The translations under genes were made by a program, and so were the position numbers. Shown here one piece after another: positions 4,234-19,970 of a DNA stretch of 32,843 bases. Origin of the DNA: an uncultured Candidatus Saccharibacteria bacterium (GTDB lineage: Bacteria > Patescibacteriota > Minisyncoccia > Phycocordibacterales > UBA5272). The notes under the pieces were generated by a model that saw only the letters and a program-made list of their open reading frames with translations, had not been told where the DNA came from and did not search any database. Every line of letters starts with the position of its first letter. Position 1 is the first letter of the stretch. Location: NCBI GenBank assembly GCA_964452605.1, contig CAYVMF010000001.1:1-32843 (forward strand), read 5' to 3'.

Positions 4234-4896
4234 ATGCATAGAAAAATAGTTTCTATCCTAGTTGCAAGCCTATTTGCAACAGGTGTCGCCTCCGCTCAAG
4301 AGGTAGGTGTTACCACAAATGTAAATACTAACGCAGCCCTTGGCGTCGCTAAAGTAAATGTGGAAGCAACAACAACCGTTACTACAAATACTCGTGGGAA
4401 CGCCACTTCATCCGCTAAAAAAGATAACGAGGCAAAGACCACTAAAGCTGAAACGACGTCCGTAACCACTGAAAGCAAGCGCTCGTCAACGGGAGAGGCT
4501 CACATGAGTGCTGTTGCTGTATTCGTACAGTCACTCCTTAGCATCGCTAACCGTGAAGGTGGAATCGGCACACAGGTACGTGCGGTAGCACAGGCGCAAA
4601 ATGACACTGCAAGCACAACAGCGGCGGCAATTACCGCTATCGAAGCACGTGGCAAACTCCGTACGTTTCTTTTTGGCACAGACTATAAAAGTATCGGACA
4701 GCTACGAAGTGATGTTACCGTTACTGAAAATAGTATCGCCCAACTAAAAGCAGTACTAGATAAAGCGCTAAGTGTAACCACCAAAGCAGAGCTCACCACT
4801 CAACTAAAAGCACTCGAAGACACACAAGTGAAACTAAACGCCTATATCAAGGCAAATGAAAGTAGTTTCAGTCTCTTCGGTTGGTTAAACAAATAA
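4234..4896 (+). CDS. Secreted Thr/Ala-rich protein with C-terminal coiled coil, unknown function
   Basis: 220-aa ORF. Signal peptide MHRKIVSILVASLFATGVASAQ, a low-complexity T/A/N-rich N-terminal half and a helical C-terminal half. A strong terminator follows. Confidence 0.6.
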   Translation: MHRKIVSILVASLFATGVASAQEVGVTTNVNTNAALGVAKVNVEATTTVTTNTRGNATSSAKKDNEAKTTKAETTSVTTESKRSSTGEAHMSAVAVFVQSLLSIANREGGIGTQVRAVAQAQNDTASTTAAAITAIEARGKLRTFLFGTDYKSIGQLRSDVTVTENSIAQLKAVLDKALSVTTKAELTTQLKALEDTQVKLNAYIKANESSFSLFGWLNK

Positions 4897-4900
4897 CTTT

Positions 4901-4942
4901 CCTAACTAAAAAACCGGGTAGCTACCCGGTTTTTTAGTTAGG
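4901..4942. terminator. Bidirectional intrinsic terminator between convergent genes
   Basis: Perfect 20-nt inverted arms, CCTAACTAAAAAACCGGGTA / TACCCGGTTTTTTAGTTAGG, separated by 2 nt. GC core with an A-tract on one side and a T-tract on the other. Confidence 0.85.
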
Positions 4943-4960
4943 AAAACTGTCTTCTAATAG

Positions 4961-5422
4961 TTACATTCCCTCAAATGCACTGATATCAATCTTCTTCATC
5001 TGAAGCAACTTCTCCCACGCACCGGGCTTTAGCATCATTGCTTCTATATTTTCAGGATTGATTTGCCATGAAAGACCGTACTTATCCTTGCACCAGCCAC
5101 AGACACTTTCACTACCACCATCTTTAGTAAGCTTGTCCCAATAGTAGTCGATCTCTGCTTGGTCCTTGCAAGAAATATTAAATGACACTGCTTCATTAAA
5201 AGTAAATTCATTACCGGCGTTAATGGCAACAAATTCTTCACCCATAAGCTCAAAATAAATAGCAAGCACTTTACCAGCAAATGGTGCCTGGAAATCAAGT
5301 AGCCCTTCTGTTGGATAGTATGAAGTTGTAATAATTTTCCCGTCCGGAAAAACAGAGAGATAAAAATTGACTGCCTCTTCTGCGTTCCCCTTGAACCATA
5401 AATTAGGTGTTATTTTCTGCAT
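4961..5422 (-). CDS. VOC/glyoxalase-superfamily protein, PhnB-like (3-demethylubiquinone-9 3-methyltransferase-domain family)
   Basis: 153-aa ORF. MQKITPNLWFKGNAEEAVNFYLSVFP...CGWCKDKYGLSWQI matches the characteristic N- and C-terminal motifs of this family. Confidence 0.8.
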   Translation of the reverse strand: MQKITPNLWFKGNAEEAVNFYLSVFPDGKIITTSYYPTEGLLDFQAPFAGKVLAIYFELMGEEFVAINAGNEFTFNEAVSFNISCKDQAEIDYYWDKLTKDGGSESVCGWCKDKYGLSWQINPENIEAMMLKPGAWEKLLQMKKIDISAFEGM

Positions 5423-5440
5423 AGACTTATTGTAACACTT

Positions 5441-5908
5441 TTAGAGATCAGTAAACCCTCCCAGGTAACTCGCTTCGTATACACAAACACCGTCTTTGTA
5501 GATTTTCTCAGTTCCTGAAAACTTCGCAACATCTCCAACAAGTGTGTTCTCATACCTGAAAGTCCCTTCTTCGTACACCTCTGGTCCTCGGTATGGCATC
5601 TCTACAGTTGAGTTAGAAAGACTTGTCATAAGAAATGGATACACATCTTTTGCTTCAACTGATGAATCTACAAATCCGTAATACACCATCATCCAAACAG
5701 CTTTATTATTTAGAAATACAACTTCTCTACCTCCGTATGGTTCGCCTCCGAAATAGTTGTCGTGAAATGTGTATTCACCATCTTGGAAGCGAATAGTTGT
5801 AGAGCCGTCTTCTTGTTTTTCTTTTATTGAAGCATCACCAGATGCATATGTCGCACGACTGGCTTTCAGGATGAATTCCTGAAGTTTTACTACATCAATA
5901 GTATTCAT
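5441..5908 (-). CDS. DUF5680-like protein
   Basis: 155-aa ORF. ASRATYASGD...HDNYFGGEPYGGREVVFLNNKAVWMMVYYG resembles the DUF5680 signature as I recall it. Confidence 0.55.
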   Translation of the reverse strand: MNTIDVVKLQEFILKASRATYASGDASIKEKQEDGSTTIRFQDGEYTFHDNYFGGEPYGGREVVFLNNKAVWMMVYYGFVDSSVEAKDVYPFLMTSLSNSTVEMPYRGPEVYEEGTFRYENTLVGDVAKFSGTEKIYKDGVCVYEASYLGGFTDL

Positions 5909-6033
5909 GTGGTAAGTGTATCATCTGAAACCTTTTACATTCTTTTCCCCTATATCAAAACCAACAAGAACTCCAATACAAAACCCGATAAAAAGGCAGC
6001 ATAGCCCGGTGATTATATAAAACATAGATTTGT

Positions 6034-6165
6034 CTGTTGAGGACTTTTGATAATGACTAGAAACAAAAAGCTCCTAGCCAGCGGTTCCTTGCGGAACCTA
6101 CACAGGTTTCCCTGCATAGCCTCAACAGCACTCTGACTAGGAGTTTTTTACTGTTGAGGGCTTTT
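6034..6165 (-). ncRNA. Candidate structured RNA or cis-regulatory element: three-way junction with two GNRA-capped hairpins, closed by a long stem with a U-run and flanked by 15-nt repeats
   Basis: Read on the minus strand. P1 is CUCCUAGUCAG/CUGGCUAGGAG (6071-6081 with 6133-6143). P2 is CUAUGCAGG-GAAA-CCUGUGUAG. P3 is GGUUCC-GCAA-GGAACC. A U-run (CUUUUUGUUU) follows. The junction strand CUGUUGAGG (6128-6120) is complementary to both flanking copies of CCUCAACAG (plus-strand ctgttgagg at 6034-6042 and 6151-6159). The strand call rests only on the GNRA loops. Confidence 0.3.
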
Positions 6166-6169
6166 CGCC

Positions 6170-6328
6170 ATGCCAGTACTACTACTTGGTTTAGGCTACT
6201 TTCTACAATATTCAGTTGTTGTACAATTATACCTCTTTTTTGAAGCTTGGAGAACTACTTATCGTACTCATCTTACGAGGTGGAGTCAAAATGATGTTAT
6301 GACTTTTTTCAGAAAAGGTGTAGAGTAA
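6170..6328 (+). CDS. Possible 52-aa membrane peptide ORF upstream of the GC-rich gene at 6359
   Basis: Hand translation gives MPVLLLGLGYFLQYSVVVQLYLFFEAWRTTYRTHLTRWSQNDVMTFFRKGVE*. Hydrophobic N-terminus, basic tail. I saw no clear promoter or SD. It ends 30 nt before the next ATG. Confidence 0.2.
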   Translation: MPVLLLGLGYFLQYSVVVQLYLFFEAWRTTYRTHLTRWSQNDVMTFFRKGVE

Positions 6329-6358
6329 CAAAATCCCACCAACCACAGGAGATATGCC

Positions 6359-6676
6359 ATGGGAATCCTAACGTTTGTTAAGAAGTTGTTTACGCCTTCT
6401 CCGGAAACGCTCCGGCTACAGCAACAGAACGCCGACGAAGAGCTCAAGGGGAAAATCCTCTTGGTACTGGAAGACCCCTACTGTGCCACTTACCGCGGCG
6501 GGATCGTGCCTTTTGAGGTCATTCGCCATCAGCTGAGAGCGTGGCCGCTCGAGCAGATCCTTCGCATGATGAAGGAGCTCATCACGGCACGCCTCGTCCA
6601 AAGAATTGACGGCGGCAAGAGTGAAAAACCTGCCACCGAAGTTCAGTACGTCAGTTCTGCCTCCAGGCGCGACTAA
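6359..6676 (+). CDS. GC-rich orphan protein (105 aa), possibly winged-helix-like
   Basis: GGAG lies 8 nt upstream of the ATG, unlike native genes. GC is clearly above the neighbours. The central pattern KILLVLEDP....IVPFEVIRHQL..WPLEQILRMMKELITARLVQRI resembles a wHTH recognition module. Its own terminator follows. Confidence 0.6.
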   Translation: MGILTFVKKLFTPSPETLRLQQQNADEELKGKILLVLEDPYCATYRGGIVPFEVIRHQLRAWPLEQILRMMKELITARLVQRIDGGKSEKPATEVQYVSSASRRD

Positions 6677-6701
6677 GTAGTAGGCCTAACGGGCAGGTCA
6701 T

Positions 6702-6748
6702 AAACCGCCGTCAAGCGAAAAACGGAGTCGCTTCGGCGGTTTTGTTTT
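6702..6748 (+). terminator. Intrinsic terminator of the 6359 gene
   Basis: AACCGCCG...CGGCGGTT outer stem with inner AAGCGA/TCGCTT pairing, followed by TTTGTTTTG. Confidence 0.7.
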
Positions 6749-6777
6749 GCACACAAATCAAGCTGCTGGCTTGAAAA

Positions 6778-7113
6778 CTACATCTGCCTTGCTTCCATTA
6801 TTTCAATGGTTGCACCAGGAATACCAAAGTGAGGATGATCTTTAAAAAGCTCTGCTACCGCTTCAGCGGATTCCCCTTGTACGTATGATGATAGCATCAT
6901 GTCATTTTTGACATCTTCTACACCAGAAGCGCTCACTCGCTTTGTTTTCCCAAGAGCGATTGTGTTGAGAATGGTATCTTTGTGTGAAGCTGTCCACGCA
7001 TCCCACTCTGCTCTCATTTTTGCCTCAGCATCCTTACGTTCTGCTTCTGGTTTCTTCATCCATTCCTCCATACCAAGCGCTGGCGCCATGTATATAACTG
7101 TGAAATTTTTCAT
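6778..7113 (-). CDS. Small conserved-looking hypothetical protein (111 aa)
   Basis: Native composition. TGcTACACT lies 8 nt upstream of the ATG. I recognise no motif with confidence. Confidence 0.55.
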   Translation of the reverse strand: MKNFTVIYMAPALGMEEWMKKPEAERKDAEAKMRAEWDAWTASHKDTILNTIALGKTKRVSASGVEDVKNDMMLSSYVQGESAEAVAELFKDHPHFGIPGATIEIMEARQM

Positions 7114-7173
7114 ATACTTTTAGTGTAGCATGGTGGGCATGCACCTCGTGTTTAACTTAGAACCCTTCCAGAC

Positions 7174-8220
7174 TTATTTTTTGACTGCACTTATTAAGTT
7201 GGCAATGTCAGTAATAGAGACCTCTTTCTGGTTACCCTGGAGGTACCCATCATCTTGATGTGCAAATATAGTTTGAGCTATTTCTTTAACAATTGCATCT
7301 CTGTTTTCTGGCAGCTTATTATTTCTCACTAAAATATCAAAAGATTTTAGTGAGTTACTTCTATGAGTATTTAAATTATACATATGCAGGTTTGCATTGT
7401 AATTCTTTAAAACTTCTCTTATCAGAACGTATAAGAAAAATAGTACTGAGAAGCGAATAAGAAATGCAAAAATATAGTATTCCCAGTCCGCTACAGGCTC
7501 TGGTTGATTAATTTCTTTTAAGAGGGGTAAAAACCAGTAAACAAGAATCCATATACCAGCCCCAATTAAAATTAGAAACATAACACCAAAAAGTCTTGAT
7601 AGATTTCTATTTTTGACTGATTGATCTAAAAAAATAGTCCCATACTCGCTGACAGTGTCCACCAATGAAAAATCTTGGACCGACCTATTTAATTGTTCTA
7701 TATTATCTTTTACTTGAAGAATTTGTGTTAGGCCTTGGTTTAATTCACCCAATTTTTGGTCCACTTCTCCGACTTTTTGCTGAAAAGAACTCTGCGCATT
7801 ATTTACAACTTCTTGTGTTTGGTTTTTGTAGGTACTTAATGCTTCTTCTATTTTTTGTTTATGCTCCTCTCTAACGTACATCTGAAATTCAGAAATTTTT
7901 GGAGCTGTTACTGTATAAAAATCCCTTATCTCTTGGAGCAAGGCGTTGGCACGGAACTGCGTCTGTTCAACTGTCTCTCCCGTCTGTGTATTGAAAGACT
8001 GAGCCCTTGATTTTAAATCAATCAATTGAGAAAAAATTGCTTGCAGTTTTCCGGCATCTGTTGGAATAAATAAATGTATATTGTTCTCAAATTCTAATAC
8101 CAACTTACTTAGTCGTTGCAGCAAAGATGATATCTCTTCAAAAGAAGAGCTGTAGTTGCTGCCTAAATCAGTTCTTTTAAGACTTTCCCAATTAAGACTC
8201 TTAAGTGTATTAAAATCCAT
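7174..8220 (-). CDS. AT-rich island protein 1: N-terminal coiled coil (about 200 aa), 2 TM helices and a C-terminal helical domain
   Basis: 348-aa ORF, visibly more AT-rich than neighbours. TM helices LFGVMFLILIGAGIWILVYWFL and YYIFAFLIRFSVLFFLYVLI. AGAGTAGAAT lies 7 nt upstream of the ATG. The architecture recalls 2-TM effector modules (e.g. SLATT-like), but I cannot verify any family. Confidence 0.65.
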   Translation of the reverse strand: MDFNTLKSLNWESLKRTDLGSNYSSSFEEISSLLQRLSKLVLEFENNIHLFIPTDAGKLQAIFSQLIDLKSRAQSFNTQTGETVEQTQFRANALLQEIRDFYTVTAPKISEFQMYVREEHKQKIEEALSTYKNQTQEVVNNAQSSFQQKVGEVDQKLGELNQGLTQILQVKDNIEQLNRSVQDFSLVDTVSEYGTIFLDQSVKNRNLSRLFGVMFLILIGAGIWILVYWFLPLLKEINQPEPVADWEYYIFAFLIRFSVLFFLYVLIREVLKNYNANLHMYNLNTHRSNSLKSFDILVRNNKLPENRDAIVKEIAQTIFAHQDDGYLQGNQKEVSITDIANLISAVKK

Positions 8221-10015: not shown

Positions 10016-10089
10016 TGGCTGGGGTACAAGGGCTCGAACCTCGATTAACAGTTCCAGAAACTGCTGTCCTACCATTAGACGATACCCCA
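10016..10089 (-). tRNA. tRNA-Gln (anticodon CUG)
   Basis: I folded it by hand. Acceptor TGGGGTA/TACCCCA (U1:A72, typical of bacterial tRNA-Gln). D-arm GTCT-AATGGTA-GGAC. Anticodon arm GCAGT-TTCTGGA-ACTGT. T-arm CGAGG-TTCGAGC-CCTTG. Discriminator G and an encoded CCA. Confidence 0.9.
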
Positions 10090-19897: not shown

Positions 19898-19970
19898 GCC
19901 AAGATAGCTCAGTTGGTAGAGCACTTCCATGGTAAGGAAGAGGTCGCGGGTTCGATTCCCGCTCTTGGCT
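19898..19970 (+). tRNA. tRNA-Thr (anticodon GGU)
   Basis: Folded by hand. Acceptor GCCAAGA/TCTTGGC. D-arm GCTC-AGTTGGTA-GAGC. Anticodon arm CTTCC-ATGGTAA-GGAAG. T-arm GCGGG-TTCGATT-CCCGC. Discriminator T. CCA is not encoded. Confidence 0.9.

Follow-up and report, generated by a model that had tools for sequence, protein, structure and literature searches.

The spacer described here lies in a 32,843-nt stretch of DNA (the whole of which we call the window: contig CAYVMF010000001.1 of assembly GCA_964452605.1, positions 1 to 32,843) from an uncultured Candidatus Saccharibacteria bacterium whose genome comprises 627 kb in 58 contigs and is 97% complete. Read on the minus strand, the spacer is followed by a 34-codon hydrophobic open reading frame (ORF; MFYIITGLCCLFIGFCIGVLVGFDIGEKNVKGFR, 5921–6025 with its stop codon) and then by a gene for a DUF5680 protein (5441–5908, minus strand; Pfam PF18931, E = 2.2e-28). 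A preliminary description, made from the letters alone, had pointed out in this spacer a stem with plus-strand arms GCTCCTAGCCAG (6070–6081) and CTGACTAGGAG (6133–6143), bordered by a run of five A (6065–6069) and a run of six T (6144–6149), enclosing two hairpins and flanked by the repeats ctgttgaggactttt (6034–6048) and ctgttgagggctttt (6151–6165), which are identical at 14 of 15 positions on the plus strand. All of these features are present in the sequence at those positions, as is a plus-strand 9-mer, cctcaacag (6120–6128), that is complementary to both repeats. The element that they outline is a copy of LOOT (Rfam RF03000), a known structured RNA of the ultra-small bacteria of the candidate phyla radiation (CPR); it is a new member of an existing family and no new class, and naming the spacer from 6034 to 6231 a LOOT leader unit is, for this window, mainly a matter of annotation.

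The preliminary description had found no class for the element. The Rfam model assigns it to LOOT: the match runs from 6197 to 6083 on the minus strand with 78.3 bits (gathering score for the family, 46.4 bits; E = 2.4e-13) and covers all model positions from 1 to 121, and a permissive scan of window positions 5900–6400 (E up to 1) returned no second Rfam family, c4 included. LOOT originates from the Weinberg/Breaker alignments (Weinberg et al., 2017; PMC5737381), carries the Rfam type “Gene; sRNA” (small RNA), is presented in Rfam 14 as a “metagenomic-based RNA” (PMC7779021) and is among the families refined using R-scape in Rfam 15 (PMC11701678); the paper on CaCoFold mentions many “cross-covariations” in it (doi 10.1101/2020.02.04.933952). 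No function for LOOT is given in the 2017 main text, in either Rfam paper or in the CaCoFold paper. The host is a member of the CPR (Patescibacteria), as expected for the family, and LOOT occurs across the genus (29 of 53 genomes, with up to four copies per genome), the order (41 of 151) and the phylum (30 of 151) and in none of 14 well-known control genomes. In the genome that carries the window it is single-copy.

To characterize the family we assembled 103 LOOT loci from the genus, order and phylum with 1.5-kb flanks, all oriented to the RNA strand. Pair counts were taken from an alignment of 93 distinct sequences to a covariance model seeded on the window copy and its closest relative, in which helices P1 to P4 were modelled and a further helix, between the P2 loop and the tail, was omitted; MAFFT alignments were dropped for the P2 counts because 36 of 42 rows were out of register, and the two-sequence covariance model was used in their place. 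In this alignment 93% of cells are paired, vs 32–43% when the 3′ partners are slid, and 40 of the 46 pairs have changes on both sides. The window row fits every helix of the Rfam alignment, and its core, with the same P1 internal loop, long P2, GAAA-capped P3 and tetraloop-capped P4, is without any difference from the family. Folding energies point to the same strand: the minus strand of 6020–6210 has a z-score of -5.0 against shuffled sequences, none of 200 shuffles being equally good, vs -1.8 for the plus strand. A minus-strand RNA had already been proposed from the hairpin loops, which read GAAA and GCAA on that strand, and this holds; the second hairpin is complete only there because two G-U pairs that it needs become A-C mismatches on the plus strand.

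The core (6083–6197, minus strand, like all features of the RNA given below) begins with the P1 hairpin (6166–6197), whose internal loop consists of CCUAAAC and GCAUGG. The 5′ arm of P2, CCUCAACAGUA (6149–6159), which we call copy 1, forms the core of the right-hand repeat and pairs in the Rfam alignment with the 3′ arm UGCUGUUGAGG (6120–6130); P2 is paired in 96% of cells, with double changes in all 11 pairs. This 3′ arm is the strand that had been described as the single-stranded part of a three-way junction. In the conserved fold it is a paired strand, and the architecture is P2 plus a pseudoknot; nested-only folding of the short transcript does return the three-way junction (-52.8 kcal/mol), because the program cannot hold both helices of a pseudoknot. 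P3 (6099–6118; UAUGCAGG-GAAA-CCUGUGUA) is paired in 98.6% of cells with double changes in all eight pairs, and P4 (6083–6098; GGUUCC-GCAA-GGAACC, on the plus strand GGTTCC-TTGC-GGAACC), whose stem also covaries, in 97.8%.

The loops of the two hairpins behave differently across the family. All 93 aligned members have GAAA in the P3 loop, whereas the P4 loop varies (GCAA in 30, GAAA in 16, GUAA in 12 and UUCG in 6). The internal loop of P1 occurs as two covarying variants, CCUAAAC with GCAUGG in 44 loci, the window included, and CCUAACC with [GA]UAUGG in 42, others being rare. The 11-nt GAAA-tetraloop receptor, as found in P4-P6 of group I introns, has the motif CCUAAG / UAUGG. Both LOOT variants resemble this receptor and their halves covary, although neither is exactly the canonical motif. 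Because the P3 loop is invariant, the P4 loop variable and the P1 loop receptor-like, we infer that the P3 GAAA loop probably docks in the P1 loop and stabilizes the native fold. Some loci (L012, L039, L047, L055 and L061) carry an extra tetraloop-capped hairpin upstream of P1, outside the Rfam model and after the leader motif described below.

The Rfam model ends at P4 and is without four features that surround the core in the genomes: a tail that pairs with the P2 loop, a U-run, an upstream leader motif and a downstream copy of the P2 5′ arm. The closing stem recognized at the outset is formed by the first of these. Its arms are a strand in the P2 loop, S2a (CUCCUAGUCAG, 6133–6143), and the tail S2b (CUGGCUAGGAG, followed by C and then U5, 6065–6081), the 11 base pairs joining S2a to 6071–6081 with a duplex energy of -17.4 to -20.9 kcal/mol in the window. 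At least nine contiguous pairs between P2 loop and tail are found in 94% of the loci, vs 8.9% of cross-locus controls, that is, loops and tails (or, below, other strands) combined from unrelated loci, and the mean duplex energies are -24.5 and -10.7 kcal/mol, respectively. In the 93-sequence alignment, where this helix was left unmodelled, 67–88% of its cells are nevertheless paired, with double changes in 6 of the 11 pairs. Its sequence is specific to the locus (CUCCUAGUCAG/CUGGCUAGGAG in the window, CCCAUCAUGUGGG/CUCACGUGGUGGG and GGUCUUCUGU/GCGGGAGACC elsewhere), and it is rich in G-U pairs and therefore specific to one strand. Together with P2 it makes an H-type pseudoknot whose first loop is A-rich and whose third loop contains P3 and P4.

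In 96 of the 103 loci this is followed by a U-run of 3 nt or more, with a median start 15 nt past the end of the model. Since the second helix of the pseudoknot abuts this run, the arrangement has the form of an intrinsic terminator, and the window itself has the corresponding sequence, a GC-rich helix directly before a U-run on the transcribed strand; it escapes a simple hairpin scan, the “loop” being about 50 nt long. The terminator-like stem and U-run of the preliminary description, in the window an 11-bp helix, then C, then U5, recur family-wide. The tail has a second potential partner. In a read-through RNA it could form 11 base pairs with the arm that follows the U-run (GUUUCUAGUCA, 6054–6064); a pairing of at least 8 bp between tail and post-U-run segment exists in 31% of the loci, vs 6% of cross-locus controls, and the hairpin is present in the minimum-energy fold of the window.

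LOOT is closely tied to the start of a gene. A same-strand, ATG-started ORF begins 31–149 nt past the end of the model, mostly at +45 to +70, in 100 of the 103 loci, so that LOOT is nearly always a 5′ leader. In the window the left-hand repeat, copy 2 (AAAAGUCCUCAACAG, 6034–6048), ends 8 nt before the ATG of the 34-codon ORF and is complementary to the P2 3′ arm over 6034–6042, which gives that one strand two mutually exclusive partners, as first proposed: copy 1 (11 bp) or copy 2 (9 bp). The same design recurs elsewhere. In 46 of the 103 loci, vs 2.8% of cross-locus controls, a stretch of 9 nt or more of the P2 5′ arm is repeated exactly downstream, and one of 10 nt or more in 32%, vs 0.5%; the gap to the ATG is mostly 1–8 nt. 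The sequence of this decoy differs in almost every locus and always matches the locus's own P2, which amounts to three-way covariation. Copies 1 and 2 are nearly always identical over the proximal 9–11 nt and differ only distally, and for this reason wobble substitutions are a weak test of whether copy 2 pairs with the P2 3′ arm; internal differences between the copies were noted in L005, L013 and L083, and all three still permit wobble pairing with the 3′ arm.

The two states are close in energy. For the read-through leader of the window the fold with P2 has -67.3 kcal/mol and the decoy-paired fold -64.9 kcal/mol; the nested folds lie 1.5–2.4 kcal/mol apart in the window, and the median difference across 39 loci is +2.1 kcal/mol. 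Shine-Dalgarno-like sequences (an anti-Shine-Dalgarno duplex of -5 kcal/mol or better before the first ATG) occur in about 10% of the 379 long ORFs of this genome and in 2% of the decoy-bearing LOOT loci; the 3′ end of the 16S rRNA was not found in this assembly. Since Shine-Dalgarno sequences are scarce in the lineage, structure at the start site should dominate initiation. Throughout the 627-kb genome the decoy is the only occurrence of CCUCAACAG that adjoins a gene start. The other five sites all lie within long ORFs, three in same-strand ORFs and two under opposite-strand frames, and were rejected as targets in trans on account of this ORF-internal position. Two other ideas about the leader were also set aside. 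Pairing of the leader motif with the start region, which occurs in the minimum-energy fold of the window, has -5.0 kcal/mol over 100 loci vs -4.8 kcal/mol in controls; and a conserved upstream mini-ORF or leader-peptide attenuator, read in the window from the AUG of the GCAUGG loop as AUG GCG AAA AGC CCU CAA CAG UAA, is contradicted by a length of 2 to more than 99 codons across loci, with no conservation of frame either.

Upstream of the core, the window carries the leader motif ACAACUGAAUA (6209–6219) and a -10-like box, TATAAT (6226–6231), which is a putative promoter element of LOOT. The family motif, ACAAYTGAATA, is found with at most two mismatches in 57 of the 103 loci, 12–31 nt before the start of the Rfam model, and in the window with no mismatch at -22. 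A TATAAT-like box (at most one mismatch) stands upstream of the motif in 48 of these 57 loci, vs 14 of them in a control region lying 200 nt further upstream, and mostly ends 6–8 nt before it. A simple sigma-70 scan makes no call at 6226–6231 because there is no -35 element. The 5′ end of the LOOT transcript is probably near 6219, judging from these conserved positions. A separate promoter-like site at 6012–6040 (minus strand; TCAACA, 17 nt, TATAAT; 10 of 12 positions matching) has its -35 element in the decoy and its -10 element in the 34-codon ORF, and could drive the DUF5680 gene without LOOT; we took it to be a chance match, as two such sites were found vs 1.0 expected and the ATG at other loci lies too near copy 2 for such a site to be general.

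The genes behind LOOT are varied, and their products are often membrane or secreted proteins. The 34-codon ORF of the window stands at the usual start position of LOOT-led genes, and a search of 52 genomes of the genus gave one weak match to it (E = 0.02) and no convincing homologue. The DUF5680 gene is probably in the same transcription unit as LOOT. It has homologues in Saccharibacteria, Lloydbacteria, Uhrbacteria, Nomurabacteria, Paceibacterota, Parcubacteria and Patescibacteria, and a specific link between it and LOOT was rejected, the 10 closest CPR homologues (66–85% identical) being without LOOT upstream. The 93 downstream proteins that were scanned fall into 38 Pfam families, the commonest being SNase (7), Imm_superinfect (4) and DUF4352 (3), with T5orf172, Dam methylase and zinc-ribbon proteins among the other products; they form no coherent set of pathway or transporter genes such as a metabolite riboswitch would control. 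An N-terminal hydrophobic segment is present in 60% of LOOT-led proteins, vs 31% of the ORFs of this genome, by a crude test.

LOOT also appears to change places independently of the genes that follow it. The window copy is 91% identical over 175 nt, both repeats included, to a copy in another genome (L020); the match extends from 4 nt before the start of the model to 53 nt past its end, the flanks are unrelated and the downstream genes different. Among 138 inter-genome pairs, homology seldom reaches the downstream gene. Upstream of LOOT and on the opposite strand, 21 of the 103 loci carry a gene for a large serine recombinase (Resolvase + Recombinase + Zn_ribbon_recom), which in 17 of the 21 starts about 160–190 nt from LOOT and is divergent from it (the recombinase-linked loci include L002, L004–L006, L008, L009, L025, L033, L034, L038, L041, L048, L053, L054, L069, L094 and others). 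Even where this integrase is conserved, the gene after LOOT differs. A search of IMG/VR for the LOOT-like pattern gave nine contigs (L117–L125), all of them true LOOT with 72–94 bits. Taken together, the genes on these contigs include those for terminase subunits, serine integrases, an SU10-type capsid protein and several DNA methyltransferases, as well as a diversity-generating retroelement in the form of a reverse transcriptase gene with a bAvd-like accessory gene. The window itself is without an integrase, and its neighbouring orphan genes gave no PHROGs match and one marginal, unconvincing PADLOC match (ZorA-like, E = 7e-4).

The surroundings of LOOT in the window have features of their own. 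A 105-codon ORF (6359–6676, plus strand), divergent from LOOT, sits where many other loci carry the serine integrase; its G+C content is about 0.50, vs about 0.40 around it, and it has no Pfam, PHROGs or PADLOC match. Its sole homologue in 5.8 billion proteins is 95% identical and comes from a 1.6-kb metagenome contig of the Joint Genome Institute (JGI; sample 3300001199) with different adjoining genes. Comparison of window positions 4900–7200 with L127 (G068:C38) and L133 (G004:C11) shows a rearrangement hot spot between a 111-codon gene (6778–7113) and a 220-codon gene (4234–4896). The 111-codon protein of the closest relative is 100% identical, yet about 680 nt of unrelated DNA stand there in place of the GC-rich ORF, LOOT and the DUF5680 gene, and a 3-dmu-9_3-mt-like gene is cut to a 31-residue fragment; in G004 the families of the 111-codon and 220-codon genes are directly adjacent. 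The tRNA genes of the window lie at 10019–10089 (minus strand) and 19898–19970 (plus strand). The stretch of orphan genes that contains LOOT (about 3.2–10 kb) stops at the first of them, and the remainder of the window carries housekeeping genes: a Pif1-like helicase, FtsX, MgsA, RNase R, SMC and ATP synthase beta.

Taken from the sequence comparisons above, the reading that we favor, and consider fairly probable, is that LOOT acts in cis as a two-state 5′ leader, transcribed on the minus strand from about 6219, in which termination and start-site masking are combined; in this window it would most likely control the 34-codon ORF at 6025, the DUF5680 operon or both. If the pseudoknot has formed while the polymerase is at the U-run, transcription would stop and a short RNA of about 155 nt would be released. 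In an RNA that is read through, the tail could pair instead with the post-U-run segment, and the P2 3′ arm could shift from copy 1 to copy 2 and so bury the start region. The native LOOT fold would thus leave the start codon open, and the alternative fold would close it. The “attenuator logic or a pseudoknotted small RNA” of the preliminary description proves a good summary of this outcome of the family comparison.

Several points weigh against this two-state leader. The promoter and the read-through are inferred, as is the 3′ end at the U-run, and the pairing of copy 2 with the 3′ arm rests on position and on co-variation between loci, with few wobble substitutions. About 55% of the LOOT loci are without a clear decoy copy, and masking of the start site therefore cannot be a universal mechanism of the family. 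P2 forms first in transcription and should be stabilized by the pseudoknot, which would oppose a shift to the masked fold; a protein, a ligand, temperature or RNA processing might tip the balance. The downstream genes share no function and therefore give no hint of a ligand, and the ORF at the canonical position in this window is a 34-codon orphan.

With riboswitch and attenuator platforms LOOT shares mutually exclusive partners, a terminator-like helix with a U-run, a masked start region and competing strands linked by three-way covariation. It differs from them in being without a coherent set of regulated genes or a candidate ligand, in that its terminator is no simple hairpin but the second stem of a pseudoknot that encloses two hairpins, and in that its segment past the U-run cannot be an antiterminator. 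The second group of comparable systems comprises regulatory RNAs of prophages, namely IsrK of Gifsy-1 and the immunity RNAs CI of P4 and c4 of P1/P7. These RNAs are made from the leader of the operon that they control, and LOOT has the same leader position; short terminated and long read-through isoforms and carriage on mobile elements are likewise expected or seen for LOOT. The CI RNA of P4 pairs with seqA and seqC, which lie on its upstream and its downstream side (PMC4825925), and c4 of P1 shares an operon with its targets icd and ant (PMC8198154). The P2 3′ arm of the window is similarly complementary to copy 1 (6149–6159) on one side and to copy 2 (6034–6042) on the other. Unlike in these systems, the upstream repeat of LOOT is a permanent part of the conserved fold, and processing or action in trans is hypothetical for LOOT, which has no sequence or structural homology to them (no match to the Rfam c4 family).

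These parallels suggest the best surviving alternative, which we nonetheless regard as unlikely: a two-isoform system in which the short, terminated LOOT would act in trans on the mRNA that is read through at the same locus, pairing with copy 2 by way of the P2 3′ arm or competing for copy 1. IsrK and the CI RNA of P4 operate in this manner. The layout of repeat, complementary strand inside the RNA and second repeat is that of P4 (PMC4825925), c4 of P1 provides the precedent of a single operon with icd and ant (PMC8198154), the LOOT terminator would give a stable short form, the carriage on integrase and phage-like elements is in keeping, and the hypervariable P2 would confer specificity for each copy. 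In the short form, on the other hand, an 11-bp helix stacked on the pseudoknot locks up the P2 3′ arm, which would therefore be poorly exposed for pairing in trans; sequence comparison cannot distinguish pairing in cis from pairing in trans.

The label that LOOT bears in Rfam, “Gene; sRNA”, and its own promoter-like box and terminator-like end would also fit a free-standing sRNA that acts in trans on distant targets, the downstream repeat and the neighbouring gene being incidental. We think this improbable in view of the same-strand gene that in most loci by far starts 31–76 nt after the RNA, of the strong enrichment of the decoy and its placement at the ATG, of the lack of any other start-proximal match to the P2 arm in this genome, and of the variable strand being paired rather than exposed.

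Less probable again is a unit resembling type I toxin-antitoxin systems, in which LOOT would control a small hydrophobic toxic peptide. The strongly hydrophobic ORF of 34 residues lies exactly at the start position of LOOT-led genes, and alternative pairings with coupled covariation are also a feature of hok-type toxin mRNAs, which speaks for this explanation. That ORF, as noted, is without a convincing homologue in the genus, no more than 3 of the 11 short ORFs that follow LOOT are hydrophobic, most LOOT-led genes are of ordinary size and diverse, and there is no overlapping antisense gene.

The weakest explanation, a feature of the DNA rather than of an RNA (target-site duplication or recombination sites of a small insert, or a plain bidirectional terminator, the duplication and the terminator having been raised in the preliminary description), can draw on the direct repeats around a GC-rich stem between an A-run and a T-run, on the 175-nt module held in common with a genome whose flanks are unrelated and on the difference from the closest relative in this region, but is rejected as very improbable, given that both repeats lie inside that module and one of them within the conserved RNA, that both are complementary to an internal strand, that the G-U pairs confine the helices to one strand, that the repeat covaries with the P2 3′ arm and sits, with a sequence that differs per locus, at a fixed distance from the start codon in about 45% of the loci, and that the genes on either side point away from the spacer and not towards it, so that nothing terminates there.

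Returning to the cis-acting leader, we can place it in a wider and more tentative picture, to which we give slightly less than an even chance: LOOT may be no sRNA gene but a portable module for the control of expression, about 200 nt long, by which accessory or cargo genes are gated, many of these lying on CPR islands of serine-integrase and phage-like character. Such a module would have three parts, namely a compact fold held by docking of the GAAA loop in the receptor-like one, an H-type pseudoknot with the intrinsic terminator as its second helix, and P2 as an “address” helix of hypervariable sequence, the 3′ arm of which can leave its own 5′ partner for the identical decoy at the start codon. 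It would act as a gate on two levels, transcription and translation, and the short RNA released by termination might also act on the read-through one.

Since 2017 LOOT has been an orphan family. If the reading as a leader and switch is true, it supplies the family with a role and with a mechanism that is directly testable, and it adds an unusual design, in which a terminator built from a pseudoknot is combined with a start-site decoy. It would also hint at how ultra-small bacteria that are largely without Shine-Dalgarno sequences control their accessory and mobile-element genes.

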